Source of the DNA: a virus
Lineage: Duplodnaviria > Heunggongvirae > Uroviricota > Caudoviricetes
DNA length: 51,157 bases
Virus record (IMG/VR): IMGVR_UViG_2925877141_000001
Strand: one strand, 5' to 3'
Shown in pieces: positions 7,977 to 45,600 of the stretch (its first letter is position 1; every line of letters starts with the position of its first letter). Below the pieces are notes generated by a model that saw only the letters and a program-made list of their open reading frames with translations, was not told the DNA's origin and made no database searches. Made by a program: the position numbers and the translations under genes.

Positions 7977-8041
7977 GTGAGTCACCTCTGACTGAGAGTT
8001 TACTCACTTAGCCGCGTGTCCACTATTGCTGGGTAAGATCA

Positions 8042-8237
8042 AGGTTCCTAAGCTCACCTTAGTTCGCTTTTTGGTCACAGGCACTGCATATCTGAAATAC
8101 CAATTTTTCTTCCCTCCCTTCGCCAGGGGAGCGATTCGCAACAGCAAACCATCGCCGTCAAAAAGGTTAACCTCTTTTTCGGCAGGTTTGGTGCTTTTGA
8201 TTTCAGTGTCAGTGAGCTTCTTAGCGATTTTGGCCAT
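8042..8237 (-). pseudogene. P4/CP4-57-type integrase N-terminal fragment (~65 aa) truncated by IS3
   Basis: MAKIAKKLTDTEIKSTKPAEKEVNLFDGDGLLLRIAPLAKGGKKNWYFRYAVPVTKKRTK looks like an integrase arm-binding N-terminus; reading frame runs into the IS3 end at 8041; N-terminus lies ~170 bp from the att repeat. Confidence 0.65.
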
Positions 8238-8403
8238 GTTTGGGACCCTCGATTTTAGGACCCATCTTCGTGGGTCCCATTCAGGGTGCCATAACTCGTA
8301 GTTCTCAGCAATTCTCACTAGACTACAATAGACGTAAAAAAGCCCGCAGAGCTTGTGCTGTGCGGGCTTAGTAGACTTTACTGAACTTCAGTACATCAAT
8401 ATT

Positions 8404-8430
8404 TGGTGGAGCTGGCGGGAGTTGAACCCG
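8404..8430. repeat. 27-bp direct repeat of the ssrA 3' end (att core; prophage attL)
   Basis: TGGTGGAGCTGGCGGGAGTTGAACCCG is identical to 50756-50782 at the 3' end of ssrA. Confidence 0.85.
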
Positions 8431-8508
8431 AGTCCGTATTTTTATAATTAGCTGAAATAAAACGATTAATACTAACCATTTTATTCTGCGGATCTTTTGC
8501 GGCTCCTT

Positions 8509-9408: not shown

Positions 9409-9442
9409 ATGATACCTCTAAATGTCAGATCTAAAGTATATC

Positions 9443-9477
9443 AAAAAAAGGGCTTTATGGCCATCACATAAAACCCC
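9443..9477 (-). terminator. Possible intrinsic terminator between ATPase and methyltransferase genes
   Basis: Minus-strand hairpin GGGTTTTA...TAAAGCCC followed by a run of 7 T. Confidence 0.4.
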
Positions 9478-9487
9478 TTTTAATCAA

Positions 9488-11221: not shown

Positions 11222-11237
11222 GTTTGTATCTTGCTCC

Positions 11238-11262
11238 GTAAAATGGCCACAAATTGTGGCCA
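11238..11262 (-). terminator. Hairpin immediately downstream of int (tI/sib-like position)
   Basis: Palindrome TGGCCACA-AAT-TGTGGCCA at 11244-11262 followed on the minus strand by TTTT. Confidence 0.45.
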
Positions 11263-11279
11263 ATAGTTTCATGCTTGGA

Positions 11280-12446
11280 TTATATTGTTATCTTCTTCAA
11301 GCTTGTTTGTCCATCATATTCCTTCAGATATGAGCCATAGTGCCTGAAAAGCATCTCCGGTCCTTTATGCCCCATTTGAGCTGCAAGCCAAAACAGGTTT
11401 GCTCCCCGGCTGATATGGCGGGTGGCGAATGTATGCCTAGTTTGATATGGATTTCTGTAACGAATACCTGCTTTTCGCAATGTTGGCACCCATGCTTTTT
11501 TTCTGATTGCATCAGCACTTGCCCATGGCTTATTGGTCTTTGGATCTTCAAAGACAGTAGCATCCTTCATGAATGTAAATGGCTTCTGGTTTATCAACGC
11601 CAACATTGCTTCTTCAGTCAGTTCAACTTTACGGGTACCGGCTTTTGTCTTTGTTCCTTTGATAACTCCGACAACACTTGCGCTCTGAACATGGGCTGTT
11701 TTTCCAACAAAGTCGATATCATGCCATCGTAGGGCACATAATTCAGAACTACGCAGGCCTGTATGTATGGCGAACCGGAACAGATTTTCCCATTGTTTGT
11801 TTCCGGCTGCTGCTAGTAATGCATCAACTTCTGCTGGTGATAGCGGATCAACCACATAGCTGCTTTCTGCTTCTGACTTATCACTTTGGTAGCGCGAAGC
11901 TGTTACTAACGATACGGGGTTAATTTGAAATACCCCATCGGTCACGGCTTCATCAAGTGCTGACCGTAGGAAAGATAACTGGTTGCGAATGGTTTTTAAG
12001 GTTGTTTTCTGGCTTTGAATCCACGCTTTCAGGGTTGCTGGTGTTAATTCACTTGCAGGGCAAATGTGAAGTGAGGCTAACGCACTACGGCATTTTTTAT
12101 AGCCACCAATCGTAGAGGGTGAAAGTTTTCTTGTTTCGCAGATTTCAAGATATTCGTCCAGGTACATCTTTACCGTTTTGCCTGCAGCAGCATTACCAAA
12201 AATTTTCAAACGAGCAGAACGGGGAAAATATTCTGCATAAATGAATGTTCCCCTTTCGATCTTATTATGGATTTCGCCGAGTGTACGCTCGGCGTATTTA
12301 ATGTTCTTTGGTGTTACTTCCAGATTGGAAAGCGGCTCACGACATCTAACTCCTTTGTAGGTGAAAGTTATATTGATCGTTTCTCCCTGGCGGTGTTTCC
12401 TGATTGTTACGCCGCGCGGTAGTTTGAGCAGTTTTGTCTGGCCCAT
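11280..12446 (-). CDS. int: Phage tyrosine integrase
   Basis: 388-aa ORF with integrase C-terminal catalytic segments (HTGLRSSELCALRW, HTFATRHISRGANLFWLAAQMGH, RHYGSY); overlaps the upstream xis-like ORF. Confidence 0.85.
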   Translation of the reverse strand: MGQTKLLKLPRGVTIRKHRQGETINITFTYKGVRCREPLSNLEVTPKNIKYAERTLGEIHNKIERGTFIYAEYFPRSARLKIFGNAAAGKTVKMYLDEYLEICETRKLSPSTIGGYKKCRSALASLHICPASELTPATLKAWIQSQKTTLKTIRNQLSFLRSALDEAVTDGVFQINPVSLVTASRYQSDKSEAESSYVVDPLSPAEVDALLAAAGNKQWENLFRFAIHTGLRSSELCALRWHDIDFVGKTAHVQSASVVGVIKGTKTKAGTRKVELTEEAMLALINQKPFTFMKDATVFEDPKTNKPWASADAIRKKAWVPTLRKAGIRYRNPYQTRHTFATRHISRGANLFWLAAQMGHKGPEMLFRHYGSYLKEYDGQTSLKKITI

Positions 12447-12625
12447 TTTGCAACCTCACTAAGATCAATCCACCTCTCCTTAACGCCTTCAACCTTTAAA
12501 ACCTGAACACCTTCACGCCAAACACCGCGCTGTACACGTTTGTTTATTGCTTCAGGAGTTTCGCCAGTTTCTTTGCAATAAGTTGAGATAGGAACACAAT
12601 CGAGGTTCAGCATACGTTTCTCCAT
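12407..12625 (-). CDS. xis: Excisionase-like small DNA-binding protein
   Basis: Small ORF directly upstream of and overlapping int, as for lambda xis/int; start ambiguous (12625 or 12613). Confidence 0.5.
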   Translation of the reverse strand: MEKRMLNLDCVPISTYCKETGETPEAINKRVQRGVWREGVQVLKVEGVKERWIDLSEVAKWARQNCSNYRAA

Positions 12626-12654
12626 TATCCCGTCTGCACACGGGAGCAACATTA

Positions 12655-13521
12655 TTAACGAATAGTGTCGTTACTTTGAAGTACAGCAAATGCCATTAAT
12701 ACTTCTAAAGTATATCTTCTATAAAATTTAACAAAACCAACATAGAAAACATAGACGAAGAAAAAGCTAAGCATTATTGAAAGTAAACTATAAAGATAAT
12801 CACTATGAGTATATAATCGATAAATAAAGGTTGGAACTGATACCCAAAATGAAATTATAAAGATTAAACATATGTTTCTGCAAAAACCATATAATGCAAC
12901 ATAGTTTTGAATTTTTGTTTGATGTTGTTTTGAAAACTCATAAACATAATGATATGCCAATCTGAAGAGATCATCATCAAGTCCGTTTTTATCTTGTAAT
13001 AATTGGCGATTTGTTATGAACTTTTTCTCATAACCTTCTTTGATCATTAACCATGTTGTATTAGCTAAATGAAATGGTAGAGATTGAGAATAACATAATT
13101 TTTGTGTTATAAAATCCCATAGTATTATTGGGCATAATACGCATTTGATTATGCGATTCTTTATTTTTGTTTTTTTATCAGCGCTTCTCTCATCGCATGA
13201 TGGGCTACAAATGCTTTCTGAGGTATCTATCAATTTTTTAAATAGATATTTGGAAGGATATCCTAATTCTTTATTCATGTATTTTTCGATAAAAAATGCT
13301 GACGTGATAGAAATAAAATGTCCAGCTATATAAGATATAATAACTATTGAAGCGTAGTTCAAAATGCCAAAGATTTGACTTTGACCTCTGAGCAATTCAC
13401 TTAAGTCAATAACAATATCTAGATCGAATGTCAAACCACAGAAATACATTAATAGGATAAAAAAACCACCTGGTATTAAATATCCAAGAAAGTCATAGAA
13501 TGAGAATGGATTTTGATTCAT
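12655..13521 (-). CDS. Hypothetical multi-pass membrane protein (AT-rich accessory gene)
   Basis: ATG at 13521 with GGAG 7 nt upstream; several hydrophobic segments at both ends; not recognised as a lambda gene. Confidence 0.6.
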   Translation of the reverse strand: MNQNPFSFYDFLGYLIPGGFFILLMYFCGLTFDLDIVIDLSELLRGQSQIFGILNYASIVIISYIAGHFISITSAFFIEKYMNKELGYPSKYLFKKLIDTSESICSPSCDERSADKKTKIKNRIIKCVLCPIILWDFITQKLCYSQSLPFHLANTTWLMIKEGYEKKFITNRQLLQDKNGLDDDLFRLAYHYVYEFSKQHQTKIQNYVALYGFCRNICLIFIISFWVSVPTFIYRLYTHSDYLYSLLSIMLSFFFVYVFYVGFVKFYRRYTLEVLMAFAVLQSNDTIR

Positions 13522-13629
13522 TGTTGCTCTCCAATAATTTTTCAATTTGTAATATAACCTATATCTATATGTTAATAAATTACTTATATGTTCTTTTATG
13601 GCAGAGTTTGAATTCGTACGTGCTGATTT

Positions 13630-14154
13630 TTACGACTCAGTTAACTCTTTAAAGCGTTCCATAAACATCCCATAGGTATGGCCTGGCGACAGTGGAATAA
13701 CTTTGAACATCTCTGTTGCCGGGATACCTTCCAGTACAGGCCAGAAAGAGCCATCATCAAGCCCGAGATCGCGGCGTTCGGTTGCCAGCATGATGAGATC
13801 GGCATATTTCACGGGCGTACTCATAACCGGGGGTAACCCGTATTTCTCACGGATTACGGCGTCTATTTTTTCTTCCATCCGTTTATAGTCAGGAAGAAGG
13901 CGTTTCAGTGGAGCCGGGATGTCCTGGCAATACGCTTCTGTTGCATCATGCATTAACGCTTCAAAAGCAAATTCCTGCGGTACCAGCTGGCTGCAAAGCA
14001 CCGCATGTTGGGCGACGCTGTAGAAGTGTGAAAGATGGCCGGCAAAGCGACAGATATTTGAAAGGGAAACCGCGATATCGTTAATATCGATGTTGTCTTT
14101 ATTTATCCTGTCATAATAAAAATGTTTCCCGGAAAAAGTTTTAATAAATGACAT
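13630..14154 (-). CDS. HD-domain phosphohydrolase
   Basis: H...HD motif (LMHDATEAYCQD) in translation; ATG at 14154 with GGAG 6 nt upstream. Confidence 0.6.
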   Translation of the reverse strand: MSFIKTFSGKHFYYDRINKDNIDINDIAVSLSNICRFAGHLSHFYSVAQHAVLCSQLVPQEFAFEALMHDATEAYCQDIPAPLKRLLPDYKRMEEKIDAVIREKYGLPPVMSTPVKYADLIMLATERRDLGLDDGSFWPVLEGIPATEMFKVIPLSPGHTYGMFMERFKELTES

Positions 14155-14282
14155 TTTGTTCTCCACGTTATATGCGCTGCATCGCGCTGAATTTTGGTTA
14201 AAGAAAACCCTCGCCTTCAGGCGATTATTGAGTCAATTACGTTTCCATAAATGCCCCCGCAGGGGCATTTGCAGTAATGAAA

Positions 14283-15107
14283 TCAGGCGGTGAAAGTCCC
14301 AATAAAGGTTTCTACTTTGCTGTCCTTGAATTTCTCAACAAGCAGATCACGAAATTCGTTAGCCATATCTTCCTGCACCGCTTCCAGCTGAATAATGCGC
14401 AGAACCAGTACAGGACGATCGCCAGTGATAATGCTGAGGCGTAATTTAAACGGACGTTCTTTCAGACCTTCAAATGGAACGCATTTAAACTCAAATGCCA
14501 CTGGCATAATGTCTTTGGTCTTCGCTTCGACAGACTCCATCAGGGAGCGTTTGCCGCTGAAGTCATTATCTTCAAAATCAGCAGTCTGGTTTGCTTCAAT
14601 CGTGATTTTACGGACCGCCGCAGCCGCTTTTGTTGCCTGAATCGTGTCACCATTAGCATCAAAGCCCACAAGGTAGTCGGCCCAGTCTTCAATCCATTCT
14701 GCCAGTGACTTCTGGGAGTTACGCTCGCCGTTAACAGACAACAGAGCAGAGAACGGTGCTGTCTTTTTCAGTTTGAGTGTGGCGGTGTTATCTGCGTGAC
14801 CTGGTTCATCAATAGTACCCAGGTTAAGCACACTGACGGCTCGCATATTATCAGCATCGATAAAGCAGCGGGTGCCTTCATCTGCAAGATCTTTAGAATA
14901 ACGGGTAAAGTCATCGATGCTGGCAGTGGAAAGCGCACCACGGAAACGGAAGCGATTTAAATTAAATTTTTCCAGATCATGAATGCGGAAATTCTCAGGC
15001 AATGCCACAGCATCGGCACCAATCTTACTGATAATTTCATTAACACCCTGAGCAGAAATAAGGGCATGGATTTGATTAATTGCGGTTGCGTCTAAGTTCT
15101 GAGACAT
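14283..15107 (-). CDS. Phage early-region protein, possibly YfdQ/DUF2303-like
   Basis: 274-aa ORF with GAGGA RBS; family assignment from memory only. Confidence 0.5.
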
Positions 15108-15172
15108 AATAAGTCCTCACTATATAAAGATATTCAGTGATGAGATAAATAATCAGTTAATTAAAAACGATA

Positions 15173-15535
15173 TTAACGACCTGCTGCGCGGAGTTTTCCG
15201 TCAGGTTCACCGGCAAGAGTCAGTAACTGTCCCTGGTCTTCCTGCAGAATAGTCAGGCGACCACCGCGATTGACATACATCGGCGTTTCGGTGGTGTCTT
15301 CTTCGGAAATTTTCCCGCGGTTAGTCGGGCGAACATATGAGAGTTTGTGTTTGATTTTCACTCGGTTCTCATCAAACGGTTCGATTTCCAGGTTGAGCGA
15401 GACCTTACCTTTGGTTTTCGTGTTCATCACACCGGAAGCGACTTCACTGAGAACTGCGCCGATTTTGGTTTCAAATACGCCGCCGTCCAGCTCCCCGATA
15501 AATGCCTGCACATCAGTACTGCGTTCGCTAGCCAT
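15173..15535 (-). CDS. Small phage early-region protein
   Basis: ATG at 15535 (MASERSTDVQAFIGELDGG...) with GAGGAG upstream; the longer ORF-track N-terminus is judged non-coding. Confidence 0.5.
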   Translation of the reverse strand: MASERSTDVQAFIGELDGGVFETKIGAVLSEVASGVMNTKTKGKVSLNLEIEPFDENRVKIKHKLSYVRPTNRGKISEEDTTETPMYVNRGGRLTILQEDQGQLLTLAGEPDGKLRAAGR

Positions 15536-15583
15536 TTTGCTGCTCCTCATCATATCGACCCTGCAAGGTCGGTTAGTTTCTCC

Positions 15584-15672
15584 ACAAAACAGAGAAGAAC
15601 ACCTGCGGTGACTGCCGCCCGGATGGATTGGGTTATGAGCCCGTCGTCCGGTGATGCTCTTCTCTGTTTTGT
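15584..15672. repeat. Long inverted repeat (16-17 bp arms, ~55-nt spacer); start of a cluster of hairpins in a non-coding stretch
   Basis: ACAAAACAGAGAAGAAC (15584-15600) pairs with GCTCTTCTCTGTTTTGT (15656-15672); further hairpin GGTACCAGC...GCTGGTACC at 15682-15716. Confidence 0.5.
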
Positions 15673-16003
15673 AAAAAGGACGGTACCAGCCGGAAGCAAG
15701 GGTACAAGCTGGTACCGCCAAGACTACACACAGCATAAAGTTGTGGTGCCGGGTGCCTCCCGGTGCCTGGCGAAGGTTGCACACCAGGCGGGTGGGTATC
15801 CACAGAAGGTCGACTGTCAGCCTCAACCTTAACCCGCGTGCGCTGAGCCGCATTCACCACAACGCTAAGGATTCTCTCTGGTTGAAAATACTTAGCTGTT
15901 ATGTGCCTGCTTTTAGCCACATCAGGCGAGGTGGACCTAGTTATTCCCCAACAACAAGGATTCGGTTAATCTGGTTATCCCCAACAACGCAAAAGGAAAA
16001 GAA

Positions 16004-16438
16004 ATGTCCGGTAATATCTATACGCTGTACAAATCCCACTGTGAAAATGTTGGAAAGTATCGGGGCATTGAAATCAGTGGGGTAGTGTCATCAGTCGAAA
16101 TAAGCAAAGTTGAATCAAGGGCAACATTACTTACTCTTTTGGACCTTGTCTTACATGAGCACCGGAAGAAATTCGGCACTCCCTATAATCAGTTGAATGG
16201 GAAAAAGGCTCTGGTTCACCTTATTCTGATGAAGCATCACTGGATGCCAAAACAGATTAATGAGATGAAATTTGATGAACTTCTTCTTTCAATTCAGGAT
16301 GAACTCACACTTGATAAAATAAGCGTAACCGCCCAGAAATTTTTAGATTATCGAGACTGGAGATCACAAATTCATCACTTTGATGATTTTGACGAAAATG
16401 AATGGGATCCTAATTTGTCTGCACAATATCTAAAGTAA
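16004..16438 (+). CDS. Hypothetical protein in immunity-proximal region
   Basis: 144-aa ORF on the strand opposite the early-left genes; no recognisable domain. Confidence 0.45.
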   Translation: MSGNIYTLYKSHCENVGKYRGIEISGVVSSVEISKVESRATLLTLLDLVLHEHRKKFGTPYNQLNGKKALVHLILMKHHWMPKQINEMKFDELLLSIQDELTLDKISVTAQKFLDYRDWRSQIHHFDDFDENEWDPNLSAQYLK

Positions 16439-16616
16439 CATCCTGTGATAAAACCGTGATTTCCTGATCCAGTTTTTTTAAGGAGTCTATTGTTTCCTGT
16501 CGATAAGACAGCACTTCACGAAGCTGGTTTATAGCTGCCAGCTTCTTTGTCATCCACTCATAAATTTCCTCATCTGTGTAGCCAGGCGCGACGATTTTGG
16601 GTTCTGTTTTGTGCAT
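16410..16616 (-). CDS. Hypothetical small acidic protein downstream of cI
   Basis: ORF MHKTEPKIVAPGYTDEEIYEW...; 3' end overlaps the convergent 16004-16438 gene. Confidence 0.4.
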   Translation of the reverse strand: MHKTEPKIVAPGYTDEEIYEWMTKKLAAINQLREVLSYRQETIDSLKKLDQEITVLSQDVTLDIVQTN

Positions 16617-16863
16617 TTCACATCTCCTCAAGTTATCAGTTACTTGTTGATGGGGACCAGATTCTTAAAGAGCTAAGCGTCCTGTAGGGCGCTTTTTTGT
16701 TGCTAACGAATCATCCTGGACTTCATATGCCCCAGGCGGCTACTTCGTGGGCGTCCTGCCTGTTCGTTATCTTTGATATAAAATCTAACTTAACTTAGTT
16801 ATTATGGCAAGAGAAAACACCAAACTTTTCTTAGTTCGGTGCCTTAGTTAGAGAAGAGAGGTC

Positions 16864-17490
16864 TTAGAGTTCGTATTGAACTCCTTTGACTACACCAATG
16901 ATAAGGCAATTACCATTGATAGGGATGTTGGGATACCGAGGATTTAATGGCACTAAAAACTTTTGAGGGCCATCGATGACTAATTTTTTTACTGTAGCTT
17001 CGTTTGTTCCATCAAGTCGAGCGATGACTATTTTTCCATGACGAGGTTCTGCATCTGGATCTACAATCACTGTTGCGCCTTCTGGTATTGTTGGGAGGCC
17101 ATTAGGGTTAGTCATGGAGTCACCTTTAACCTCTAATGCAAATGAGTTATCACCAATCTTTAATGATGTATCTACCCACTTGTCCACTTCACTAAACACT
17201 TCTGCTGCCCTGCACTCAGTAAACTGCCCAGCCTGAACCCACGATATTACAGGAACTCTGCGCATGTTTGTGACGAGTTTGCCTTCAAACTCAGCACCAT
17301 AAAGAATGTAATCTATTGATGTATTGAAGAACTTCGCTAATTTCGAAAGTGCCTCCCCACCAGGGGTATTGATGTCTTTCTCCCAGTACCCCACAGCAAC
17401 GTCGCTTACTCCACAAAATTTACCCAATTCTTTCTGGGACGTTCCGGTAACTCTTCTCAGAGCTTTTATACGCTGACCAACCGTTTCCAT
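16864..17490 (-). CDS. cI: CI-type prophage repressor (HTH + LexA/S24 peptidase-like domain)
   Basis: N-terminal HTH (GTSQKELGKFCGVSDVAVGYWE) and C-terminal S24-like segment (LEVKGDSMTNPNG...GKIVIARLDG); divergent from a cro-like gene. Confidence 0.85.
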   Translation of the reverse strand: METVGQRIKALRRVTGTSQKELGKFCGVSDVAVGYWEKDINTPGGEALSKLAKFFNTSIDYILYGAEFEGKLVTNMRRVPVISWVQAGQFTECRAAEVFSEVDKWVDTSLKIGDNSFALEVKGDSMTNPNGLPTIPEGATVIVDPDAEPRHGKIVIARLDGTNEATVKKLVIDGPQKFLVPLNPRYPNIPINGNCLIIGVVKGVQYEL

Positions 17491-17587
17491 AGGAGCACCA
17501 TTTCTTGAATTGCTAAGTAATCTTAGTTTTTATTGACCAAAGATAGATTTGTAATTAGCATCTAATAAAACTTAGTTTGGAGGGCGT
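17491..17587. promoter_or_regulatory. Immunity operator/promoter region (oR-like) between cI and cro
   Basis: Palindromes CTAAG-N4-CTTAG, ATTAG-N3-CTAAT and AAACT-T-AGTTT within a 97-bp divergent intergenic region. Confidence 0.6.
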
Positions 17588-17788
17588 ATGACAACTGACG
17601 ATATCGAAAGCTACTTCGGCAGTATTGAGAAAGTTGCTGCTTTTTTCGGCATAACAACTGAAGCCGTTTATCAGTGGCGAAACCGTCCGGGCCAGTTAAT
17701 TCCAAAAGGACGTGCAGCAGAAGCTGCATATAGAACTTGCGGACGGTTGCCATTTAAACCTGAGCTTTATGAAAAATCTAATGGATAA
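17588..17788 (+). CDS. cro: Cro-like small HTH regulator
   Basis: 66-aa ORF divergent from cI with GGAG RBS; HTH-like segment (IEKVAAFFGITTEAVYQWRNR). Confidence 0.7.
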   Translation: MTTDDIESYFGSIEKVAAFFGITTEAVYQWRNRPGQLIPKGRAAEAAYRTCGRLPFKPELYEKSNG

Positions 17789-18377
17789 ATCGATTAACAG
17801 AAACCACAGAACGATGAGGCTAACCGTGGGTAAGCATCACTGGAAAGTAGAAAAACAGCCTGAGTGGTACGTGAAAGCTGTCAGAAAAACTATCGCAGCG
17901 TTGCCGGGTGGTTACGCTGAAGCAGCTGACTGGCTGGATGTAACAGAAAACGCATTATTTAACCGCCTTCGTGCCGATGGCGATCAGATTTTCCCGCTGG
18001 GATGGGCAATGATTTTGCAACGTGCTGGTGGAACTCACTTCATTGCTGACGCTGTGGCGCAGTCTGCAAATGGCGTCTTTGTGTCTCTTCCTGACGTCGA
18101 GGATGTGGACAACGCCGATATTAACCAGCGCCTGCTGGAAGTCATTGAACAGATTGGCAGTTATTCCAGACAGATTCGTTCGGCAATCGAAGACGGTGTG
18201 GTGGAACCGCATGAGAAGACAGCAATTAACGACGAGCTGTATCTCTCAATTTCGAAGCTGCAGGAGCATGCAGCACTGGTCTACAAAATCTTTTGCATTT
18301 CAGAAAGTAATGACGCCCGCGAGTGTGCAGCTCCGGGCGCCGTGGCGTGTCGTGACTGTGGAGAAACTAACGCATGA
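17781..18377 (+). CDS. Hypothetical early regulatory protein (cII position)
   Basis: ATG overlaps the cro stop; no family confidently recognised. Confidence 0.45.
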
Positions 18378-32838: not shown

Positions 32839-33171
32839 ATGACGAGCAAAGAAACCTTTACCCATTACCAGCCGCTGGGCAACAGTGACCCGGCACATAC
32901 GGCAACCGCGCCCGGCGGATTGAGTGCGAAAGCGCCTGCAATGACCCCGCTGATGCTGGACACCTCCACCCGTAAGCTGGTTGCGTGGGATGGCACCACC
33001 GACGGTACTGCCGTTGGCATTCTGGCGGTTGATGCTGACCAGACCAGCACCACGCTGACGTTCTACAAGTCCGGCACGTTCCGTTATGAGGATGTGCTCT
33101 GGCCGGAGGCTGCCAGCGACGAGACGAAAAAACGGACCGCGTTTGCCGGAACGGCAATCAGCATCGTTTAA
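32839..33171 (+). CDS. D: Head decoration protein D
   Basis: [41 protein letters not shown]... recognised as lambda D. Confidence 0.9.
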
Positions 33172-33226
33172 CCTTACCCTTCATCACTAAAGGCCGCCTG
33201 TGCGGCTTTTTTTACGGGATTTTTTT

Positions 33227-34252
33227 ATGTCGATGTACACAACCGCCCAGCTGCTGGCGGCAAATGAGAAGAAATTTAAGTTTGATCCGCTGTTTCTGCG
33301 TCTCTTTTTCCGTGAGAGCTATCCCTTCACCACGGAGAAAGTCTATCTCTCACAAATTCCGGGACTGGTAAACATGGCGCTGTACGTTTCGCCGATTGTT
33401 TCCGGTGAGGTTATCCGCTCCCGTGGCGGCTCCACCTCTGAATTTACACCGGGATATGTCAAGCCGAAGCATGAGGTGAATCCGCAGATGACCCTGCGTC
33501 GCCTGCCGGATGAAGATCCGCAGAATCTGGCGGACCCGGCTTACCGCCGCCGTCGCATCATCATGCAGAACATGCGAGACGAAGAGCTGGCCATTGCTCA
33601 GGTCGAAGAGATGCAGGCAGTTTCTGCTGTGCTTAAGGGCAAATACACCATGACCGGTGAAGCCTTCGATCCGGTTGAGGTGGATATGGGCCGCAGTGCG
33701 GCGAACAACATCACACAGTCCGGTGGTACGGAGTGGAGCAAGCGTGACAAGTCCACGTATGACCCGACCGACGATATCGAAGCCTATGCGCTGAACGCCA
33801 GCGGAGTGGTGAATATCATCGTGTTTGATCCGAAAGGCTGGGCGCTGTTCCGTTCCTTCAAAGCCGTCAAGGAGAAGCTGGATACCCGTCGCGGCTCTAA
33901 TTCCGAGCTGGAGACAGCGGTAAAAGACCTGGGCGAAGCGGTGTCCTATAAGGGGATGTATGGCGATACGGCGATCGTCGTGTATTCCGGACAGTACGTG
34001 GAAAACGACGTCAAAAAGAACTTCCTTCCGGACAACACGATGGTGCTGGGGAACACTCAGGCACGCGGTCTGCGCACCTATGGCTGCATTCAGGATGCGG
34101 ACGCACAGCGCGAAGGTATTAACGCCTCTGCTCGCTACCCGAAAAACTGGGTGACCACCGGCGATCCGGCGCGTGAGTTCACCATGATTCAGTCAGCACC
34201 GCTGATGCTGCTGGCTGACCCTGATGCGTTCGTGTCCGTACAACTGGCGTAA
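33227..34252 (+). CDS. E: Major capsid protein E
   Basis: MSMYTTAQLLAANEKKFKFDPLFLRLFFRESYPF... recognised as lambda E. Confidence 0.95.
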   Translation: MSMYTTAQLLAANEKKFKFDPLFLRLFFRESYPFTTEKVYLSQIPGLVNMALYVSPIVSGEVIRSRGGSTSEFTPGYVKPKHEVNPQMTLRRLPDEDPQNLADPAYRRRRIIMQNMRDEELAIAQVEEMQAVSAVLKGKYTMTGEAFDPVEVDMGRSAANNITQSGGTEWSKRDKSTYDPTDDIEAYALNASGVVNIIVFDPKGWALFRSFKAVKEKLDTRRGSNSELETAVKDLGEAVSYKGMYGDTAIVVYSGQYVENDVKKNFLPDNTMVLGNTQARGLRTYGCIQDADAQREGINASARYPKNWVTTGDPAREFTMIQSAPLMLLADPDAFVSVQLA

Positions 34253-34293
34253 TCATGGCCCTTCGGGGCCATTTTCTCTCTGTGGAGGAGTCT

Positions 34294-34689
34294 ATGACGA
34301 AAGATGAACTGATTGCCCGTCTTCAGGTGCTGGGTGAGCAACTGAACCGTGATGTCAGCCTGACGGGGACGAAAGAAGAACTGGTGCTCCGTGTGGCAGA
34401 GCTGGAAGAGGAGCTTGATGACACGGATGACGCTGCCGGTCAGGACACATCTGTCAGCCCGGAAAATGCGCTGACCGGACATGAAAATGAGGTTGTATCA
34501 GCGCAGCCGGATACCGTGACTGATACGGCTGATCTGGTCACGGTTGTGGCACTGGTGACGCTGCATACTGATGCACTTCACGCCACGCGGGATGAGGCTG
34601 TGGCATTTGTGCTGCCGGGAACGGCGTTTCGTGTCTCTGCCGGTGTGGCAGCTGAAATGACAGAGCGCGGCCTGGCCAGAATGCAATAA
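34294..34689 (+). CDS. FI: DNA packaging protein FI
   Basis: MTKDELIARLQVLGEQLNRDVSLTGTKEEL... recognised as lambda FI. Confidence 0.85.
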   Translation: MTKDELIARLQVLGEQLNRDVSLTGTKEELVLRVAELEEELDDTDDAAGQDTSVSPENALTGHENEVVSAQPDTVTDTADLVTVVALVTLHTDALHATRDEAVAFVLPGTAFRVSAGVAAEMTERGLARMQ

Positions 34690-34700
34690 CGGGAGGCGCT

Positions 34701-35054
34701 GTGGCTGATTTCGATAACCTGTTCGATGCTGCCATTGCCTGCGCCGATGAAACGATACGCGGGTACATGGGAACGTCAGCCACCATGACATCCGGTGAGC
34801 AGTCCGGTGCTGTGATACGTGGTGTTTTTGATGACCCTGAAAATATCAGCTATGCCGGACAGGGCGTGCGCGTTGAAGGCTCCAGCCCGTCCCTGTTTGT
34901 CCGGACTGATGATGTGCGGCAGCTGCGGCGCGGCGACACGCTGACCATCGGTGAGGAAAACTTCTGGATAGACCGGATTTCGCCGGATGATGGCGGAAGC
35001 TGTCATCTCTGGCTTGGGCGGGGCGTACCGCCTGCCGTTAACCGTCGCCGCTGA
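34701..35054 (+). CDS. FII: Head completion protein FII
   Basis: MADFDNLFDAAIACADETIRGYMGTSATMTSGEQSG... recognised as lambda FII. Confidence 0.9.
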   Translation: MADFDNLFDAAIACADETIRGYMGTSATMTSGEQSGAVIRGVFDDPENISYAGQGVRVEGSSPSLFVRTDDVRQLRRGDTLTIGEENFWIDRISPDDGGSCHLWLGRGVPPAVNRRR

Positions 35055-35065
35055 AAGGGGGATGA

Positions 35066-35644
35066 ATGGCCATAAAAGGTCTTGAGCAGGCCGTTGAAAA
35101 CCTCAGCCGTATCAGCAGAACGGCGGTGCCCGGTGCCGCCGCAATGGCCATTAACCGCGTTGCGTCATCCGCGATATCGCAGTCGGCGTCACAGGTTGCC
35201 CGTGAGACAAAGGTACGCCGGAAACTGGTAAAGGAAAGGGCCAGGCTGAAAAGGGCCACGGTCAAAAATCCGCAGGCCAGAATCAAAGTTAACCGGGGGG
35301 ATTTGCCCGTAATCAAGCTGGGTAATGCGCGGGTTGTCCTTTCGCGCCGCAGGCGTCATAAAAAGGGGCAGCGTTCATCCCTGAAAGGTGGCGGCAGCGT
35401 GCTTGTGGTGGGTAACCGTCGTATTCCCGGCGCGTTTATTCAGCAACTGAAAAATGGCCGGTGGCATGTCATGCAGCGTGTGGCCGGGAAAAACCGTTAC
35501 CCCATTGATGTGGTGAAAATCCCGATGGCGGTGCCGCTGACCACGGCGTTTAAACAAAATATTGAGCGGATACGGCGTGAACGTCTTCCGAAAGAGCTGG
35601 GCTATGCGCTGCAGCATCAACTGAGGATGGTAATAAAGCGATGA
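35066..35644 (+). CDS. Z: Tail completion protein Z
   Basis: MAIKGLEQAVENLSRISRTAVPGAAAMAINRVASS... recognised as lambda Z. Confidence 0.9.
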   Translation: MAIKGLEQAVENLSRISRTAVPGAAAMAINRVASSAISQSASQVARETKVRRKLVKERARLKRATVKNPQARIKVNRGDLPVIKLGNARVVLSRRRRHKKGQRSSLKGGGSVLVVGNRRIPGAFIQQLKNGRWHVMQRVAGKNRYPIDVVKIPMAVPLTTAFKQNIERIRRERLPKELGYALQHQLRMVIKR

Positions 35645-36036
35645 AACATACTGAACTCCGTGCAGCCGTACTGGATGCACTGGAGAAGCATGACACCGGG
35701 GCGACGCTTTTTGATGGTCGCCCCGCTGTTTTTGATGAGGAAGATTTTCCGGCAATTGCCGTTTATCTCACCGGCGCTGAATACACGGGCGAAGAGCTGG
35801 ACAGCGATACCTGGCAGGCGGAGCTGCATATTGAAGTTTTCCTGCCTGCTCAGGTGCCGGATTCAGAGCTGGATTCGTGGATGGAGTCCCGGATTTATCC
35901 GGTGATGAGCGATATCCCGGCGCTGTCAGATTTGATCACCAGTATGGTGGCCAGTGGCTATAACTACCGGCGCGACGATGATGCGGGCCTGTGGAGTTCA
36001 GCCGATCTGACGTATGTCATTACCTATGAAATGTGA
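35641..36036 (+). CDS. U: Tail terminator protein U
   Basis: [45 protein letters not shown]... recognised as lambda U. Confidence 0.9.
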
Positions 36037-36043
36037 GGACGCT

Positions 36044-37075
36044 ATGCCTGTACCAAATCCTACAATGCCGGTGAAAGGTGCCGGGACCACCCTGTTGGTT
36101 TATAAGGGGAGCGGTGACCCTTATGCGAATCCGCTTTCAGACGTTGACTGGTCGCGTCTGGCAAAAGTTAAAGACCTGACGCCCGGCGAACTGACCGCTG
36201 AGTCCTATGACGACAGCTATCTCGATGATGAAAATGCGGACTGGACTGCGACCGGGCAGGGGCAGAAATCTGCCGGAGATACCAGCTTCACGCTGGCGTG
36301 GATGCCCGGAGAGCAGGGGCAGCAGGCGCTGCTGGCGTGGTTTAATAAAGGGGATACCCGTGCCTATAAAATCCGCTTCCCGAACGGCACGGTCGATGTG
36401 TTCCGCGGCTGGGTCAGCAGTATCGGTAAGGCGGTGACGGCGAAGGAAGTGATCACCCGCACGGTGAAAGTCACCAACGTGGGACGTCCGTCGATGGCAG
36501 AAGATCGCAGCACGGTAACAGCGGCAACCGGCATGACCGTGACGCCTGCCAGCACTTCGGTGGTGAAAGGGCGGAGCATCACGCTGACCGTGGCATTCCA
36601 GCCGGAAGGCGCAACCGACAAGAGCTTCCGTGCGGTGTCTGCGGATAAAACAAAAGCCACCGTGTCGGTCAGTGGTATGACCATCACCGTGAAAGGTGTT
36701 GCTGCAGGCAAGGTCAACATTCCGGTTGTATCCGGTAATGGTGAACTTGCTGTGGTTGCAGGAATCACCGTCAGCCGCTGGCGCATTGAGCAGTGCAGCG
36801 AACTGAGCGCGGTGAGTGCCTCCTTTGTACTGTCCACGCCGACGGAAACGGATGGCGCTGTTTTTCCGGGACGTATCATGCTGGCCAACACCTGCACCTG
36901 GACCTATCGCGGTGACGAGTGCGGTTATAGCGGTCCGGCTGTCGCGGATGAATATGACCAGCCAACGTCCGATATCACGAAGGATAAATGCAGCAAATGC
37001 CTGAGCGGTTGTAAGTTCCGCAATAACGTCGGCAACTTTGGCGGCTTCCTTTCCATTAACAAACTTTCGCAGTAA
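36044..37075 (+). pseudogene. In-frame fusion of major tail protein V (N-terminal ~240 aa) to the C-terminal ~100 aa of tail-tip protein L
   Basis: [16 protein letters not shown]...VVAGITV (V-like) continues directly into [54 protein letters not shown]...FLSINKLSQ (L C-terminus); no G, T, H or M between U and K. Confidence 0.8.
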
Positions 37076-37080
37076 ATCCC

Positions 37081-37824
37081 ATGACACAGACAGAATCAGC
37101 GATTCTGGCGCACGCCCGGCGATGTGCGCCAGCGGAGTCGTGCGGCTTCGTGGTAAGCACGCCGGAGGGGGAAAGATATTTTCCCTGCGTGAATATTTCC
37201 GGTGAGCCGGAGGCGTATTTCCGTATGTCGCCGGAAGACTGGCTGCAGGCAGAAATGCAGGGTGAGATTGTGGCGCTGGTCCACAGCCACCCCGGTGGTC
37301 TGCCCTGGCTGAGTGAGGCCGACCGGCGGCTGCAGGTGCAGAGTGATTTGCCGTGGTGGCTGGTCTGCCGGGGAGTGATTCATAAGTTCCGCTGTGTGCC
37401 GCATCTCACCGGGCGGCGTTTTGAGCACGGGGTGACAGACTGTTATACGCTGTTCCGCGATGCCTATCATCTTGCAGGTATCGATTTGCCGGATTTTTAC
37501 CGACATGATGACTGGTGGAAATCAGGTCAGAATCTCTATCTGGATAATCTGGAGGCCACAGGGCTGTATCAGGTGCCGTTGTCATCAGCACAACCGGGCG
37601 ATGTGCTGCTGTGCTGTTTTGGTTCATCAGTGCCGAATCACGCCGCAATTTACTGCGGCGACGGCGAGCTGCTGCACCATATTCCTGAACAACTGAGCAA
37701 ACGAGAGAGGTACACCGACAAATGGCAGCGACGCACACACTCCCTCTGGCGTCACCAGGCATGGCACGCATCTGCCTTTACGGGGATTTACAACGATTTG
37801 TCCGCCGCATCGATCTGCGTGTGA
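37081..37824 (+). CDS. K: Tail-tip assembly protein K
   Basis: MTQTESAILAHARRCAPAESCGFVVSTPEGERYFPCVNISGEPEAY... recognised as lambda K; 3' end overlaps I in another frame. Confidence 0.85.
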   Translation: MTQTESAILAHARRCAPAESCGFVVSTPEGERYFPCVNISGEPEAYFRMSPEDWLQAEMQGEIVALVHSHPGGLPWLSEADRRLQVQSDLPWWLVCRGVIHKFRCVPHLTGRRFEHGVTDCYTLFRDAYHLAGIDLPDFYRHDDWWKSGQNLYLDNLEATGLYQVPLSSAQPGDVLLCCFGSSVPNHAAIYCGDGELLHHIPEQLSKRERYTDKWQRRTHSLWRHQAWHASAFTGIYNDLSAASICV

Positions 37825-38363
37825 AAACGGGGGCCGAAGCCATCCGGGCGCTGGCCATGCAGATCCCGGCGTTTCGTCAGAAGCTGAGCGACGGCTGGTA
37901 TCAGGTACGCATTGCCGGGCGTGATACAGGTGAAACGGAATTATCAGCCCGTCTTAATGAACCGCTGGCAAATGGTGCTGTGATCCATATCGTGCCGCGT
38001 CTGGCAGGAGCCAAAAGTGGCGGTGTGTTTCAGGCTGTGCTGGGGGCGGCTGTTATGGCGGTTGCTATATGGATGCCGGGGGTAGGAATTATGGCGAGTA
38101 ATCTGCTGTTTTCTCTCGGTGCCAGTATGACGCTTGGCGGTGTTGCACAGATGCTGGCCCCTAAACCCAAAACCCCCCGCACACAGACAACGGATAACGG
38201 CAAACAGAACACCTATTTTTCTTCACTGGATAATATGGTTGCCCAGGGCAATGTTCTGCCCGTTCTGTACGGTGAAATGCGCGTGGGATCACGTGTGGTA
38301 TCTCAGGAGATCAGCACAGCAGATGAAGGTGACGGTGGTCAGGTTGTGGTGATTGGTCGCTGA
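37722..38363 (+). CDS. I: Tail-tip assembly protein I
   Basis: MAATHTLPLASPGMARICLYGDLQRF... recognised as lambda I. Confidence 0.85.
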   Translation: MAATHTLPLASPGMARICLYGDLQRFVRRIDLRVKTGAEAIRALAMQIPAFRQKLSDGWYQVRIAGRDTGETELSARLNEPLANGAVIHIVPRLAGAKSGGVFQAVLGAAVMAVAIWMPGVGIMASNLLFSLGASMTLGGVAQMLAPKPKTPRTQTTDNGKQNTYFSSLDNMVAQGNVLPVLYGEMRVGSRVVSQEISTADEGDGGQVVVIGR

Positions 38364-38423
38364 TGCAAAACGTTTTATGTGAAACCGCCTCCGGGCGGTT
38401 TTATCGTTTATGGAGCATGACGA

Positions 38424-41400
38424 ATGGGTAAAGGCAGCAGTAAGGGGCATACCCCGCGCGAAGCGAAGGACAACCTGAAGTCCACGCAGCTGCTGAGTGT
38501 GATCGATGCTATCAGCGAAGGGCCGGTTGAAGGTCCGGTGGATGGATTAAAAAGCGTGCTGCTGAACAGTACGCCGGTGCTGGACAGTGAGGGGAATACC
38601 AATATATCCGGCGTCACGGTGGTGTTCCGGGCCGGTGAGCAGGAGCAGACACCGCCGGAGGGATTTGAATCCTCCGGCTCCGAGACGGTGCTGGGTACGG
38701 AAGTGAAATACGACACGCCGATCACCCGCACCATTACGTCGGCAAACATTGACCGTCTGCGCTTTACCTTCGGTGTGCAGGCACTGGTGGAAACCACCTC
38801 AAAGGGGGACAGGAATCCGTCGGAAGTTCGCCTGCTGGTTCAGATACAACGTAACGGTGGCTGGGTGACGGAAAAAGACATCACCATTAAGGGCAAAACC
38901 ACCTCGCAGTATCTGGCCTCGGTAGTGGTGGATAACCTGCCGCCGCGCCCGTTTAATATCCGGATGCGCAGGATGACGCCGGACAGCACCACAGACCAGC
39001 TGCAGAACAAAACGCTCTGGTCGTCATACACCGAAATCATCGATGTGAAACAGTGCTACCCGAACACGGCACTGGTCGGCGTGCAGGTGGATTCGGAGCA
39101 GTTCGGCAGCCAGCAGGTGAGCCGTAATTATCATCTTCGCGGGCGCATTCTGCAGGTGCCGTCGAACTATAACCCGCAGACGCGGCAATACAGCGGTATC
39201 TGGGACGGAACGTTTAAACCGGCATACAGCAACAACATGGCCTGGTGTCTGTGGGATATGCTGACCCATCCGCGCTACGGCATGGGGAAACGTCTTGGTG
39301 CGGCGGATGTGGATAAATGGGCGCTGTATGTCATCGGCCAGTACTGCGACCAGTCGGTGCCGGACGGCTTTGGCGGCACGGAGCCGCGCATCACCTGTAA
39401 TGCGTACCTGACCACACAGCGCAAGGCGTGGGATGTGCTCAGTGATTTCTGCTCGGCGATGCGCTGTATGCCGGTATGGAACGGGCAGACGCTGACGTTC
39501 GTGCAGGACCGACCATCAGATAAGGTGTGGACCTATAACCGCAGTAATGTGGTGATGCCGGATGATGGCGCGCCGTTCCGCTACAGCTTCAGCGCCCTGA
39601 AAGACCGCCATAATGCCGTTGAGGTGAACTGGATTGACCCGAACAACGGCTGGGAGACGGCGACAGAGCTTGTGGAGGATACGCAGGCCATTGCCCGTTA
39701 CGGTCGTAACGTCACGAAGATGGATGCCTTTGGCTGTACCAGCCGGGGGCAGGCACACCGCGCCGGGCTGTGGCTGATTAAAACGGAGCTGCTGGAAACG
39801 CAGACCGTGGATTTCAGCGTGGGTGCCGAAGGGCTTCGCCATGTGCCGGGTGATGTTATTGAAATCTGCGATGATGACTATGCGGGGATCAGCACCGGCG
39901 GGCGCGTGCTGGCGGTGAACAGCCAGACCCGGACGCTGACGCTCGACCGTGAAATCACGCTGCCATCCTCCGGTACCACGCTGATAAGCCTGGTTGACGG
40001 AAGTGGCAATCCGGTCAGCGTGGAGGTCCAGTCCATCACCGACGGCGTGAAGGTAAAAGTGAGCCGTGTTCCTGACGGCGTTGCCGGATACAGCGTATGG
40101 GGGCTGAAGCTGCCGACGCTGCGCCAGCGCCTGTTCCGCTGCGTGAGTATCCGTGAGAACGATGACGGCACGTATACCATCACCGCCGTGCAGCATGTAC
40201 CGGAAAAAGAGGCCATCGTGGATAACGGGGCGCACTTTGACGGCGACCAGAGCGGCACGGTGAATGGTGTCACGCCGCCAGCAGTGCAGCATCTGACCGC
40301 AGAAGTCACCGCAGACAGCGGGGAATACCAGGTGCTGGCCCGCTGGGACACGCCGAAGGTGGTGAAGGGCGTGAGCTTCCTGCTTCGCCTGACCGTGGCA
40401 GCGGATGACGGCAGTGAGCGGCTGGTCAGCACAGCCAGGACGACGGAAACCACATACCGCTTCACGCAACTGGCGCTGGGGAATTACAGGCTGACAGTCC
40501 GGGCGGTAAATGCGTGGGGACAGCAGGGCGATCCGGCATCGGTATCGTTCCGGATTGCCGCACCGGCAGCGCCGTCTCGGATTGAGCTGACGCCGGGCTA
40601 TTTTCAGATAACCGCCACGCCGCATCTTGCGGTTTATGATCCGACGGTACAGTTTGAGTTCTGGTTCTCGGAAAAGCGGATTGCGGATATCAGGCAGGTT
40701 GAAACCACAGCACGCTATCTTGGTACGGCGTTGTACTGGATAGCCGCCAGTATCAATATCAAACCGGGCCATAATTATTATTTTTACGTTCGCAGTGTGA
40801 ACACCGTTGGCAAATCGGCATTCGTGGAGGCTGTTGGTCAGCCGAGTGATGATGCATCCGGCTATCTGGATTTTTTCAAAGGCGAGATAGGGAAAACCCA
40901 TCTGGCTCAGGAGCTGTGGACGCAGATTGATAACGGTCAGCTTGCGCCTGACCTGGCTGAAATCAGGACATCCATTACGGATGTCAGCAATGAAATCACA
41001 CAGACCGTCAATAAGAAACTGGAAGACCAGAGTGCAGCGATCCAGCAGATACAGAAGGTTCAGGTTGATACAAATAATAACCTGAACAGCATGTGGGCTG
41101 TGAAGCTGCAGCAGATGCAGGACGGACGCCTTTATATTGCGGGTATCGGTGCCGGTATTGAGAATACGCCAGCAGGAATGCAGAGTCAGGTGCTGCTGGC
41201 GGCAGACAGGATTGCGATGATTAATCCTGCGAATGGCAACACAAAGCCGATGTTTGTTGGTCAGGGTGATCAGATATTCATGAACGACGTGTTCCTGAAA
41301 TATCTGACGGCTCCCACCATTACCAGCGGCGGTAATCCTCCTGCATTTTCCCTGACACCGGACGGGCGACTGACGGCGAAAAATGCGGATATCAGTGGCA

Positions 41401-41903
41401 GTGTGAATGCGAACGCCGGGACGCTCAACAATGTCACGATAAATGAAAACTGTCGGGTTCTGGGAAAACTGTCTGCGAACCAGATTGAAGGCGATCTCGT
41501 TAAAACAGTGGGCAAAGCTTTCCCCCGGGACTCCCGTGCACCGGAGCGGTGGCCATCAGGGACCATTACCGTCAGGGTTTATGACGATCAGCCGTTTGAC
41601 CGGCAGATTGTTATTCCCGCGGTGGCGTTTCGTGGCGCTAAACATGAGCGGGAGAATAACGATATTTATTCGTCATGCCGCCTGATAGTGAAGAAAAACG
41701 GTGCTGAAATTTATAACCGTACCGCGCTGGATAATACGCTGGTTTATACAGGTGTTATTGATATGCCTGCTGGTCGCGGTCACATGACGCTGGAGTTTTC
41801 GGTATCAGCGTGGCTGGTAAATGACTGGTATCCCACAGCCAGTATCAGTGATTTGCTGGTTGTGGTGATGAAGAAATCCACAGCAGGTATCACGATTAGC
41901 TGA
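38424..41903 (+). CDS. J: Tail tip / host-specificity protein J
   Basis: 1159-aa ORF starting [37 protein letters not shown]..., recognised as lambda J. Confidence 0.95.
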
Positions 41904-42571: not shown

Positions 42572-42635
42572 TTAGCCAGGTAACACAGTGTTATGACAGC
42601 CCGCCGGTTCAGGCGGGCTTTTTTGTGGGGTGAAT

Positions 42636-45600
42636 ATGGCAGTAAAGATTTCAGGTGTACTGAAAGACGGCGCAGGTAAACCGGTACAGAACTGCACAAT
42701 CCAGCTGAAAGCAAAACGTAACAGCACCACGGTGGTGGCGAACACGGTGGCCTCAGAAAATCCGGATGAAGCCGGGCGTTACAGCATGGACGTTGAGTAC
42801 GGTCAGTACAGCGTTATTCTGTTGGTGGAAGGCTTCCCGCCATCGCATGCCGGGACCATCACCGTGTATGAAGACTCACAACCGGGTACGCTGAATGATT
42901 TTCTCGGTGCCATGACGGAGGATGATGTCCGTCCGGAGGCACTGCGCCGCTTTGAACTGATGGTGGAAGAGGTGGCGCGTAACGCGTCCGCAGTGGCGCA
43001 GAACACAGCAGCCGCGAAGAAGTCAGCCAGCGATGCCAGCACATCAGCCCGTGAGGCGGCAACCCATGCGACTGATGCTGCAGGCTCAGCACGTGCAGCC
43101 AGCACGTCAGCCGGACAGGCCGCGTCGTCGGCTCAGTCAGCGTCTTCCAGCGCAGGAACGGCATCAACAAAGGCCACTGAAGCATCAAAAAGTGCTGCCG
43201 CCGCAGAGTCTTCAAAAAGCGCGGCAGCCACCAGTGCCGGTGCAGCGAAAACGTCGGAAATGAATGCCGCAGCATCACAAAAATCTGCGGCCACATCTGC
43301 ATCCACCGCGACCACGAAAGCGTCAGAAGCTGCCACCTCAGCCCGGGATGCGTCGGCTTCAAAAGTGGCGGCAAAATCATCAGAAACGAGCGCTGCCTCG
43401 AGCGCCGGCAGTGCAGCTTCCTCGGCAACGGCAGCAGGAAATTCCGCGAAGGCCGCAAAAACGTCTGAGACGAATGCGGATAACAGCGCACAGGCGGCAG
43501 CAGACTCACAAACTGCATCGGCAAACTCCGCGACAGCAGCCAAAAAATCAGAAACCAACGCGAAAAATAGTGAGGCAGCAGCAAAGGTCAGCGAAACCAA
43601 CGCTAAAGCGTCAGAGAACAAGGCGAAAGAATATCTCGACAAGGTCGGGGGACTCGTCAGCCCGATGACGCAATACGATTGGCCCGTTGTTACTGGTAGT
43701 GAGCCTTTTTACATAAAGATCGCGAAACTTTCCGATCCCGGAAGCAAAGATTGCCATGTAACGCTAATGGTTACTAATGCCGGTAACTACGGCTCCCCTT
43801 ACGGAAACATTGACTTTATCGAGATCTCGGCGCGCGGTCTGCCTTCTTCGCTTACTGCGGATAATGTTTCTCGTCATCTGAGTATACGCCGCTTAGGGTC
43901 AACCGGGCTGACCGATAACAACCAGATGCGTTACGGCCTGGTTAAAGGTGACGGCTTTATTGAGGTTTGGGCATTCCAGGGTGCGTTTATTAACGACGCA
44001 AAGGTTGCGGTGCTGGCGCAGACAACACTAAACACAGAATTATACATTCCAGACGGATTTGTTAAGCAAACCGCCGCGCCTTCTGGATATATTGAAGGCA
44101 ACGTTGTAAGGATTTACGACCAGGTAAACAAGCCGACTAAAGCAGATTTGGGTCTTTCTAATGCTATGCTTACAGGCGCTTTCGGTCTTGGCGGTAGCGG
44201 GATATCAACAAACGGCAAGATGAGCGATGTAGAGATCTTAAAAGCTCTGCGTGACAAAGGTGGTCATTTCTGGCGCGGTGATAAGCCGACCGGAAGCACG
44301 GCGACCATTTATAGCCACGGTTCTGGTATATTCTCGCGGTGCGGCGATACGTGGTCAGCGATCAATATCGACTACTCAACCGCGAAGATTAAGATCTATG
44401 CCGGCAACGATGCCCGGCTTAACAACGGGACTTTTAGCGTCAATGAGCTATACGGCTCGGCAAACAAGCCGTCGAAATCGGATGTTGGACTTGGCAACGT
44501 AACGAACGATGCGCAGGTAAAAAAAACCGGCGATACAATGACCGGTGACTTGACAATCAAAAAAGGTACACCGTCAGTCTTCCTGCGGGCAGACAGTGGA
44601 GTCACCGCTTTGCGGTTTTATACTGGCGATAACACAGAGCGCGGCATAATCTATGCTGGTCCTAACACTGATTCGCTTGGCGAAGTTCGCATCAGGGCAA
44701 AGACAGCAGGGGGGACATCAGGAGGGGATCTTGTTGTTCGTCACGACGGGAGGGTTGAAGTCCGTGATCTCACAGTAGCGTATAAAATTAAAAGCAGAAC
44801 GATTGAGATTGCAAATACCGACACTGACTCATCGGCAACTACGCTAAGCATCTATGGAGTACAGCACACGCCGTTGGTTTTAACGCGTTCTGGTTCTTCT
44901 GAAAATGTGTCCATTGGGTTTAAGTTAGACAACATGAACCCAAAGTATCTTGGAATTGATACTAATGGGGATCTGGCTTTTGGTGAGAGTCCTGATCAGA
45001 AACAAAACAGCAAATTGATCACGCAAGCGAAACTCGACAAGGGATTAACGATTGGTGGTCAACTGGCTTTCAAAGGTACGACAGCGTTTTCAGCCGCTGC
45101 TACGTTCAGTGCCGGGATAGCAGGAGCCATCGAGCCTGAAAACATTGGCGACCAGAAGGTTGATCTTAACAACCTGACCATCAGGTCAGATGCCGGGGCG
45201 GTTAAATACTATAGTTGTCCATCCTCTGGAGGTGGTGCAAATATCACCAACAAGCCTGACGGTGTAACCGGTAACTTTTTGCTCCGTGTAGAGTCGACTC
45301 GCAAAGTTTCTGCTTCGGATTATGCGAACATGCAAACGCTGATCAGCAACGACACAAAACGTATATACGTTCGCTTTGTTGTTAATGGAAACTGGACAGC
45401 GTGGAGTCAGGTTGTTGTTTCCGGATGGAATCAGGATGTAACCGTCAGGTCGTTAACCTCGACGACTCCATCAAAATTAGGTGGCGGGCGGATTGATGTG
45501 CTTGGAAGTACGTCAGATTATGGCAGCATGAATTGTACCGTTCGTGGTGTTGATAGCACTGGAACCAATTCGGCGTGGTCGGTAGGCACATCAGAAAGCA

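Follow-up and report, generated by a model that had tools for sequence, protein, structure and literature searches.

An in-frame V::L' fusion gene and a tail-gene deletion in a lambda-like prophage at ssrA

The window (the whole stretch of DNA analysed, 51,157 nucleotides) contains a lambda-like prophage in which the gene for the major tail protein V runs in frame into the C-terminal part of the gene for L, and the tail genes that separate the two in lambda are missing. The best explanation, and in our view a highly probable one, is a recent single deletion in the ssrA-integrated prophage, which would leave it with no tails of its own.

The prophage lies between two direct repeats (28 bp exact, 34 bp with 1 mismatch) and is 42.4 kb long now, compared with about 46.5 kb before the deletion. 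Its limits are defined by the following features.

8403..8436: left att repeat, a copy of the ssrA 3' end; left prophage limit
50755..50788: right att repeat, overlapping the ssrA 3' end; right prophage limit
50756-51118, minus strand: tmRNA (ssrA)

The integrase gene (11283-12446) is located at the end distant from ssrA, with two cargo genes between it and the left repeat. Together with the xis-like gene, the integrase and the att direct repeats identify the prophage as an integrated element.

The V::L' fusion gene and its domains

The fusion consists of a nearly complete V and less than half of L.

36044..37075, plus strand: V::L' fusion ORF, 343 aa plus stop; V residues 1-243, then L residues 133-232
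36044..36772, plus strand: V-derived part; tube domain and Ig-like Big_2 domain complete, lacking only the last 3 V codons
36773..37075, plus strand: L-derived part; end of the HDI beta-sandwich and the whole Fe-S binding domain

The start of lambda V corresponds to 36044; an ATG upstream, at 36014, lengthens the ORF mechanically. Fusion residues 1-243 are identical to residues 1-243 of lambda V at 233 of 243 positions (V has 246 residues), and fusion residues 244-343 are identical to lambda L residues 133-232 at all 100 positions. Pfam assigns Phage_TTP_12 (PF16461) to residues 19-152, Big_2 to residues 161-237 and Phage_tail_L (PF05100) to residues 242-341. The PF16461 match spans profile positions 2-135 of 135 and the Big_2 match positions 2-75 of 79, and Pfam and PDB agree that the full N-terminal tube domain and the C-terminal Ig-like domain of V are both present. 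The Phage_tail_L match spans only profile positions 103-206 of 206. In the PDB, lambda V chain 6p3e matches fusion residues 1-244, and lambda L chain 8iyk_L matches the second part via chain residues 116-232.

The L-derived part can be read against the structure of gpL, which has an N-terminal HDI beta-sandwich (residues 1-166) and an Fe-S domain (residues 154-232) with Cys173, Cys182, Cys205 and Cys212 (PMC10721106). The HDI beta-sandwich makes the last tail ring together with gpJ (PMC10721106). The breakpoint, at L residue 133, is inside the HDI beta-sandwich; thus, the cut does not fall at a domain boundary, and the Fe-S domain survives. Specifically, the four cluster cysteines are all kept, as Cys284, Cys293, Cys316 and Cys323 of the fusion. 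With L residues 1-132 missing, the fusion does not have the pairing of N-terminal HDI beta-sandwich and C-terminal Fe-S domain that makes up L.

Translation, alignment, Pfam and PDB confirm the original prediction of an in-frame V-to-L fusion. The switch is not in the middle of V, as had been stated, but three residues from its end, and the share of L that is present is 43% (100 of 232 aa) rather than the C-terminal third.

The deletion junction and its distribution

Alignment with lambda, suggested along with the original prediction, located the junction and its microhomology.

36771..36773, plus strand: deletion junction with the 3-bp microhomology TCA; lambda 9682-9684 and 13823-13825; MY1-8 sister prophage (locus L002) 39701-39703 and 43860-43862

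Window 27106-36778 is collinear with lambda 13-9688 (blastn against NC_001416, 97.9% identity), and window 36771-40920 with lambda 13823-18002 (92.9% identity). The collinearity is interrupted at this one point only. The V side of the junction ends with ...ATCACCGTCA and the L side goes on with GCCGCTGGCGC, while the parental V sequence is ...ACCGTCACCG(A/C)CAGTTAA and the parental L sequence is ...GAGGTGATCAGCCGCTGG. Compared with lambda, 4141 bp are missing (9685-13825, with an ambiguity of 3 bp in either direction); compared with the MY1-8 sister prophage, 4159 bp are missing. An 8-bp overlap at the junction reported by BLAST was rejected, as it is made up of TCA and a gapped CCGC, with an exact share of only 3 bp.

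A deletion by short-homology illegitimate recombination is plausible rather than demonstrated, because a microhomology of at least 3 bp is expected in about 5% of random junctions, which makes 3 bp weak evidence. Both deletion lengths are 1 modulo 3, which places L in the frame of V. The open frame needs no special explanation, because it has a chance of 1 in 3 and because an independent V-L deletion elsewhere is out of frame. A scan for promoters and terminators around the junction gave nothing above shuffled expectation for signals made by the junction itself. Three SNPs just upstream of the junction, relative to MY1-8, were considered as traces of error-prone repair or decay. This reading was rejected because V with identical 3' SNPs and its own stop codon exists intact (strain 300081, protein P0004).

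The exact chimera protein is present in four NCBI E. coli records (HAG7861191.1, HAG7898607.1, HAG7946425.1 and NBY81424.1) and on eight contigs, the longest of 4.54 Mb. NCBI labels it 'phage minor tail protein L', which is misleading as a public label for a V::L' deletion product. An independently assembled contig from SRR8610343 is 100% identical to window 27299-40917 (13.6 kb), junction included, and a Logan lookup found the junction contig in four samples. Carriers of the junction came to light only via exact-protein look-ups. None of 5,426 complete E. coli genomes has the exact junction, nor does it occur in GTDB species representatives, IMG/VR, JGI metagenomes, INPHARED phages or PLSDB plasmids. 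The tail region as such is matched in 4445 of the 5,426 complete genomes, at a median of 4 places each. Because the junction is absent from all genome, phage, plasmid and metagenome collections searched, the V::L' allele is rare. The isolates that carry it may be one clone and hence give no proof of long-term persistence.

The absence from these collections is also what would be expected if the V-to-L join were false, an artefact of assembly or sequencing, as the original prediction had itself allowed. We consider this extremely unlikely. The same protein recurs in the four NCBI records and on the eight contigs, the Logan lookup gives the contig in four samples, and the separately assembled contig crosses the junction without a mismatch. 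In addition, an overlap of 3 bp is all that the two sides have in common, and a k-mer or overlap assembler would not misjoin them on so little.

The chimera could in principle be under selection, either because it poisons related tails as a dominant-negative tube subunit or because it makes a tube that displays the Fe-S domain, to name two examples. The frame is open through both parts, the promoter and ribosome-binding context of V are unchanged, the V part is nearly full length and the L part has all four cluster cysteines. Moreover, V in lambda display vectors tolerates C-terminal additions. We nevertheless hold a selected function to be very improbable. An open frame has an a priori chance of 1 in 3, and the comparable V-L deletion elsewhere is out of frame. 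The L fragment starts within the beta-sandwich domain, and a search of the chimera against PADLOC gave no match. The allele is limited to a few near-identical isolates, so that selection has had no time to show. Under the preferred explanation, a recent deletion that kept the frame by chance, we infer that the chimera is non-functional.

Genes lost, genes kept and the predicted consequence

Gene content was compared by tblastn of 47 proteins of the MY1-8 sister prophage against the window. G, T, H and M from this intact prophage have no match anywhere in the window. MY1-8 V aligns over residues 1-244, with the true match ending at 243, and L aligns C-terminally only. The deletion has removed the last three V codons, the whole of G, T, H (the tape measure) and M, and L up to codon 132 (its 5' 57%). 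The other proteins compared (43 of 43) are full-length and stop-free in the window, with 99-100% amino-acid identity. They include the integrase, an xis-like gene product, a LexA-family repressor, Cro, the replication proteins, Q, holin, endolysin and Rz, which are 99.6-100% identical to those of the sister prophage. Also intact are Nu1, A, W, B, C, D, E, FI, FII, Z, U, K, I, J and Lom. The gene blocks to the left and right of the fusion are as follows.

27283..36036, plus strand: packaging, head and proximal tail genes Nu1, A, W, B, C/Nu3, D, E, FI, FII, Z and U, intact
37081..41903, plus strand: distal tail genes K, I and J, intact

The lambda-type late operon order Nu1-A-W-B-C-D-E-FI-FII-Z-U-V-...-K-I-J is present (93-98% blastn identity, ORFs and tblastn). 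Collinearity and tblastn support the claim of a single internal deletion of G, T, H, M and 5' L that made the in-frame fusion, and lambda collinearity, tblastn and Pfam support the claim of intact head genes and intact K, I and J. The original prediction found no tape measure, G, T or M between U and K, and named a tape-measure gene elsewhere as a finding that would overturn it; by tblastn none of them is present in the whole window. The set of tail-assembly genes (G/GT, H, M and full-length L) is therefore incomplete, and the prophage has lost essential morphogenetic genes in comparison with an intact relative, which is one of the marks of a defective prophage.

An open reading frame is the one observation that would fit a history with no deletion, in which V::L' belongs to the native tail layout of another phage type that works without a separate tape measure. 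This reading can be taken as refuted. The 99.6%-identical sister has the full V-G-T-H-M-L set at exactly that place, the V allele is known intact with its own stop, and of the L profile no more than the C-terminal half is matched here.

The lambda cosN 12-mer was sought in the window and not found. A cosN variant at 27094-27105, GGGCGGAAGGCG, takes the place of the lambda sequence GGGCGGCGACCT, and the flanking cos sequences are conserved. The variant is common to the MY1-8 and E400634 prophages; because the intact sister prophage shares it, it is not a defect.

Downstream of J, the side tail fibre is encoded by a 1260-aa ORF (window 42630-46412, plus strand) with a C-terminal Peptidase_S74 intramolecular chaperone domain. 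Its MY1-8 counterpart is described as 'broken' in RefSeq, yet the DNA aligns gap-free. Only the 3' end of a lambda-type tfa is left after the side tail fibre gene (window 46450-46571), pointing to an exchange of the fibre module some time ago.

The proposed course of events is as follows. A lambda-like prophage of ~46.5 kb at the ssrA 3' end would have undergone one illegitimate deletion of ~4.16 kb while chromosome-resident. The deletion would be of the short-homology type and probably RecA-independent. One breakpoint is three codons short of the V stop and the other at L codon 133, and TCA is all that they share. Lost with the deleted segment are the tail chaperones G and GT, the tape measure H, the distal tail protein M and L's N-terminal hub domain. 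The late operon now encodes the V(1-243)::L(133-232) chimera, its frame kept by chance, followed by intact K, I and J.

In lambda, J is the starting point of tail assembly, and I, L and K are added to it. The initiator is then completed by H, with the chaperones G and GT, and by M. V polymerises on the completed initiator, and H, G/GT, M and L are all required. In the structure of the lambda tail, gpM forms the distal ring and gpL the hub, and the structural roles of gpH and gpJ are also shown (PMC10721106). A prophage that lacks H, G/GT and M and has only part of L would form no tail initiator; V could not polymerise into a tail, and no infectious virions would be made unaided. By analogy with lambda genetics, the prophage is probably unable to make its own tails because H, G/GT, M and the L hub domain are gone.

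The original prediction called the prophage both unable to make tails and cryptic. The first part stands by inference from the lambda pathway. The second part does not follow, because the excision, regulation, replication, lysis, cos and head genes are intact. In the strict sense, a cryptic prophage has lost excision, replication, lysis or regulation, and the genes for each of these functions are full-length here. To judge from its gene content, a recently disabled and possibly still inducible defective prophage is more likely than an inert remnant. The prophage may still be inducible, package DNA, lyse the cell and release filled heads. The sequence comparison indicates that the deletion is evolutionarily very recent, with no sign of later decay, because the rest of the prophage is 99-100% identical to its sister and the parental-type V allele is intact elsewhere.

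The same gene content raises the question of whether the prophage, although defective in cis, is still mobile. It would be induced, excise, replicate, fill heads and lyse the cell, and helper prophages would either supply tails or restore G-T-H-M-L by recombination. Both att repeats, int, xis, the repressor, replication genes, Q, lysis genes, cos, terminase, head genes, FII, Z and U are intact, and tail modules of the lambda type are frequent in E. coli (matches at a median of 4 places in each genome). Lambda heads and tails are built separately and join spontaneously. In O157, defective prophages are released as particles and rescued by inter-prophage recombination (PMC2669165). A tape-measure gene of another prophage in the host might also act in trans. 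A helper tail, however, must fit the FII/U interface of the prophage. Rescue of this kind is rather unlikely, and it would modify the main explanation rather than replace it. In a more elaborate form, the prophage would be a tail parasite that, once induced, packs its own DNA with its defence cargo and uses helper tails, with an abundantly expressed V::L' co-assembling into these tails or interfering with them; we rate this as quite improbable.

Whichever way its DNA may travel, the prophage that has suffered the deletion carries intact defence cargo, as judged from Pfam and PADLOC and in line with the claim that the cargo genes remain.

8512-9408, minus strand: D12-class adenine methyltransferase; full-length match to PADLOC PD-Lambda-5_B, E 1e-123
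9491-11221, minus strand: 577-aa AAA_15/AAA_21 ATPase; best PADLOC matches are PtuA, AriA and GajA-type ATPases
23637-24854, plus strand: 406-aa nSTAND1/AAA_22 ATPase, between the Q antiterminator and holin; weak match to PADLOC PDC-S59, E 2e-7
46668-47438, minus strand: GIY-YIG protein; match to PD-T4-3, a defence system of one gene, E 8e-140
47803-49275, plus strand: Dcm-type cytosine methyltransferase
49316-50527, minus strand: EcoRII-type restriction endonuclease

The D12 methyltransferase and the AAA ATPase, which lie between the left att repeat and int, are probably a two-gene defence system. The interval from Q to holin is the classic moron position. The region from the tail-fibre genes to the right att repeat carries the PD-T4-3-like, Dcm-type and EcoRII-type genes.

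To the left of the prophage, window 1-8400 contains debris of other elements.

1-753: truncated tyrosine integrase
1039-2592: serine recombinase
2585-4371: two ParB/RepB-like genes
4692-5528 and 6817-7985: IS3-family transposase genes

Comparison with known systems

The late operon of lambda (NC_001416), Z-U-V-G-T-H-M-L-K-I-J, matches the prophage in gene order and sequence. DNA identity is 97.9% from Nu1 to V and 92.9% from L' to J, and the L fragment is 100% identical as protein. The prophage lacks lambda 9685-13825, a segment with the stop region of V, the genes G, T, H and M, and codons 1-132 of L. Other than that, it differs from lambda in the early region, the integrase, the attachment site (ssrA), cosN and the side tail fibre.

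The closest relative is the sister prophage of E. coli MY1-8 (NZ_CP122517.1, 1139-1186 kb), which has the same ssrA site and the same gene content from att to att. Left of the junction the two are 99.6% identical over 28.4 kb, and right of it they are 99.2% identical over 6 kb. In the MY1-8 prophage the 4159 bp are still in place, with G, T, H and M present and both V and L complete. Between MY1-8 and the window, V differs at 11 residues, a mosaic patch. The differences between the prophages cluster in four patches, at 28000-29000 (A), 31000-32000 (B/C), 36000-36778 (V) and 40000-41000 (J), and the remaining ~20 kb on the left have 8 mismatches in total. Such clustering is as expected for patchy recombination, or mosaicism, among lambdoid prophages. 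Just outside the left att repeat, MY1-8 has an extra 3.9 kb (a hypothetical gene and an integrase) compared with the window.

The same block has been lost independently in other E. coli. In E400634, E600003 and E500002, the deletion, from lambda 9438 to 13499, is out of frame; in the E400634-type prophage, the head genes from A (1269) to Z (8063) are lost too (locus L006, 3001-5000). In E. coli H3 (locus L007, 4382-5322), an independent loss runs from lambda 9952 (G) to 13427 (start of L). In both the E400634-type and the H3 deletion, the right breakpoint is in L or at its start. Because these deletions are independent, loss of the tape-measure block is a recurrent and unremarkable route of decay.

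Deletion of the tail block is thus a known phenomenon, and the prophage described here is a new instance of a defective lambdoid prophage. For the scoring of prophage completeness and inducibility in this lineage, it should be counted as tail-defective, not inert. Classical K-12 cryptic prophages have most of their genome gone. The prophage here shows one lesion in an otherwise pristine sequence, which places it right at the beginning of the path of decay; it offers a clean, datable example of the first step, in an element with several defence systems. Deletions of this kind are well documented in defective lambdoid prophages (PMC2669165). The Sp prophages of O157 Sakai (PMC2669165) and the cryptic prophages of K-12 are likewise inactivated by internal morphogenetic deletions while keeping cargo and some phage functions.
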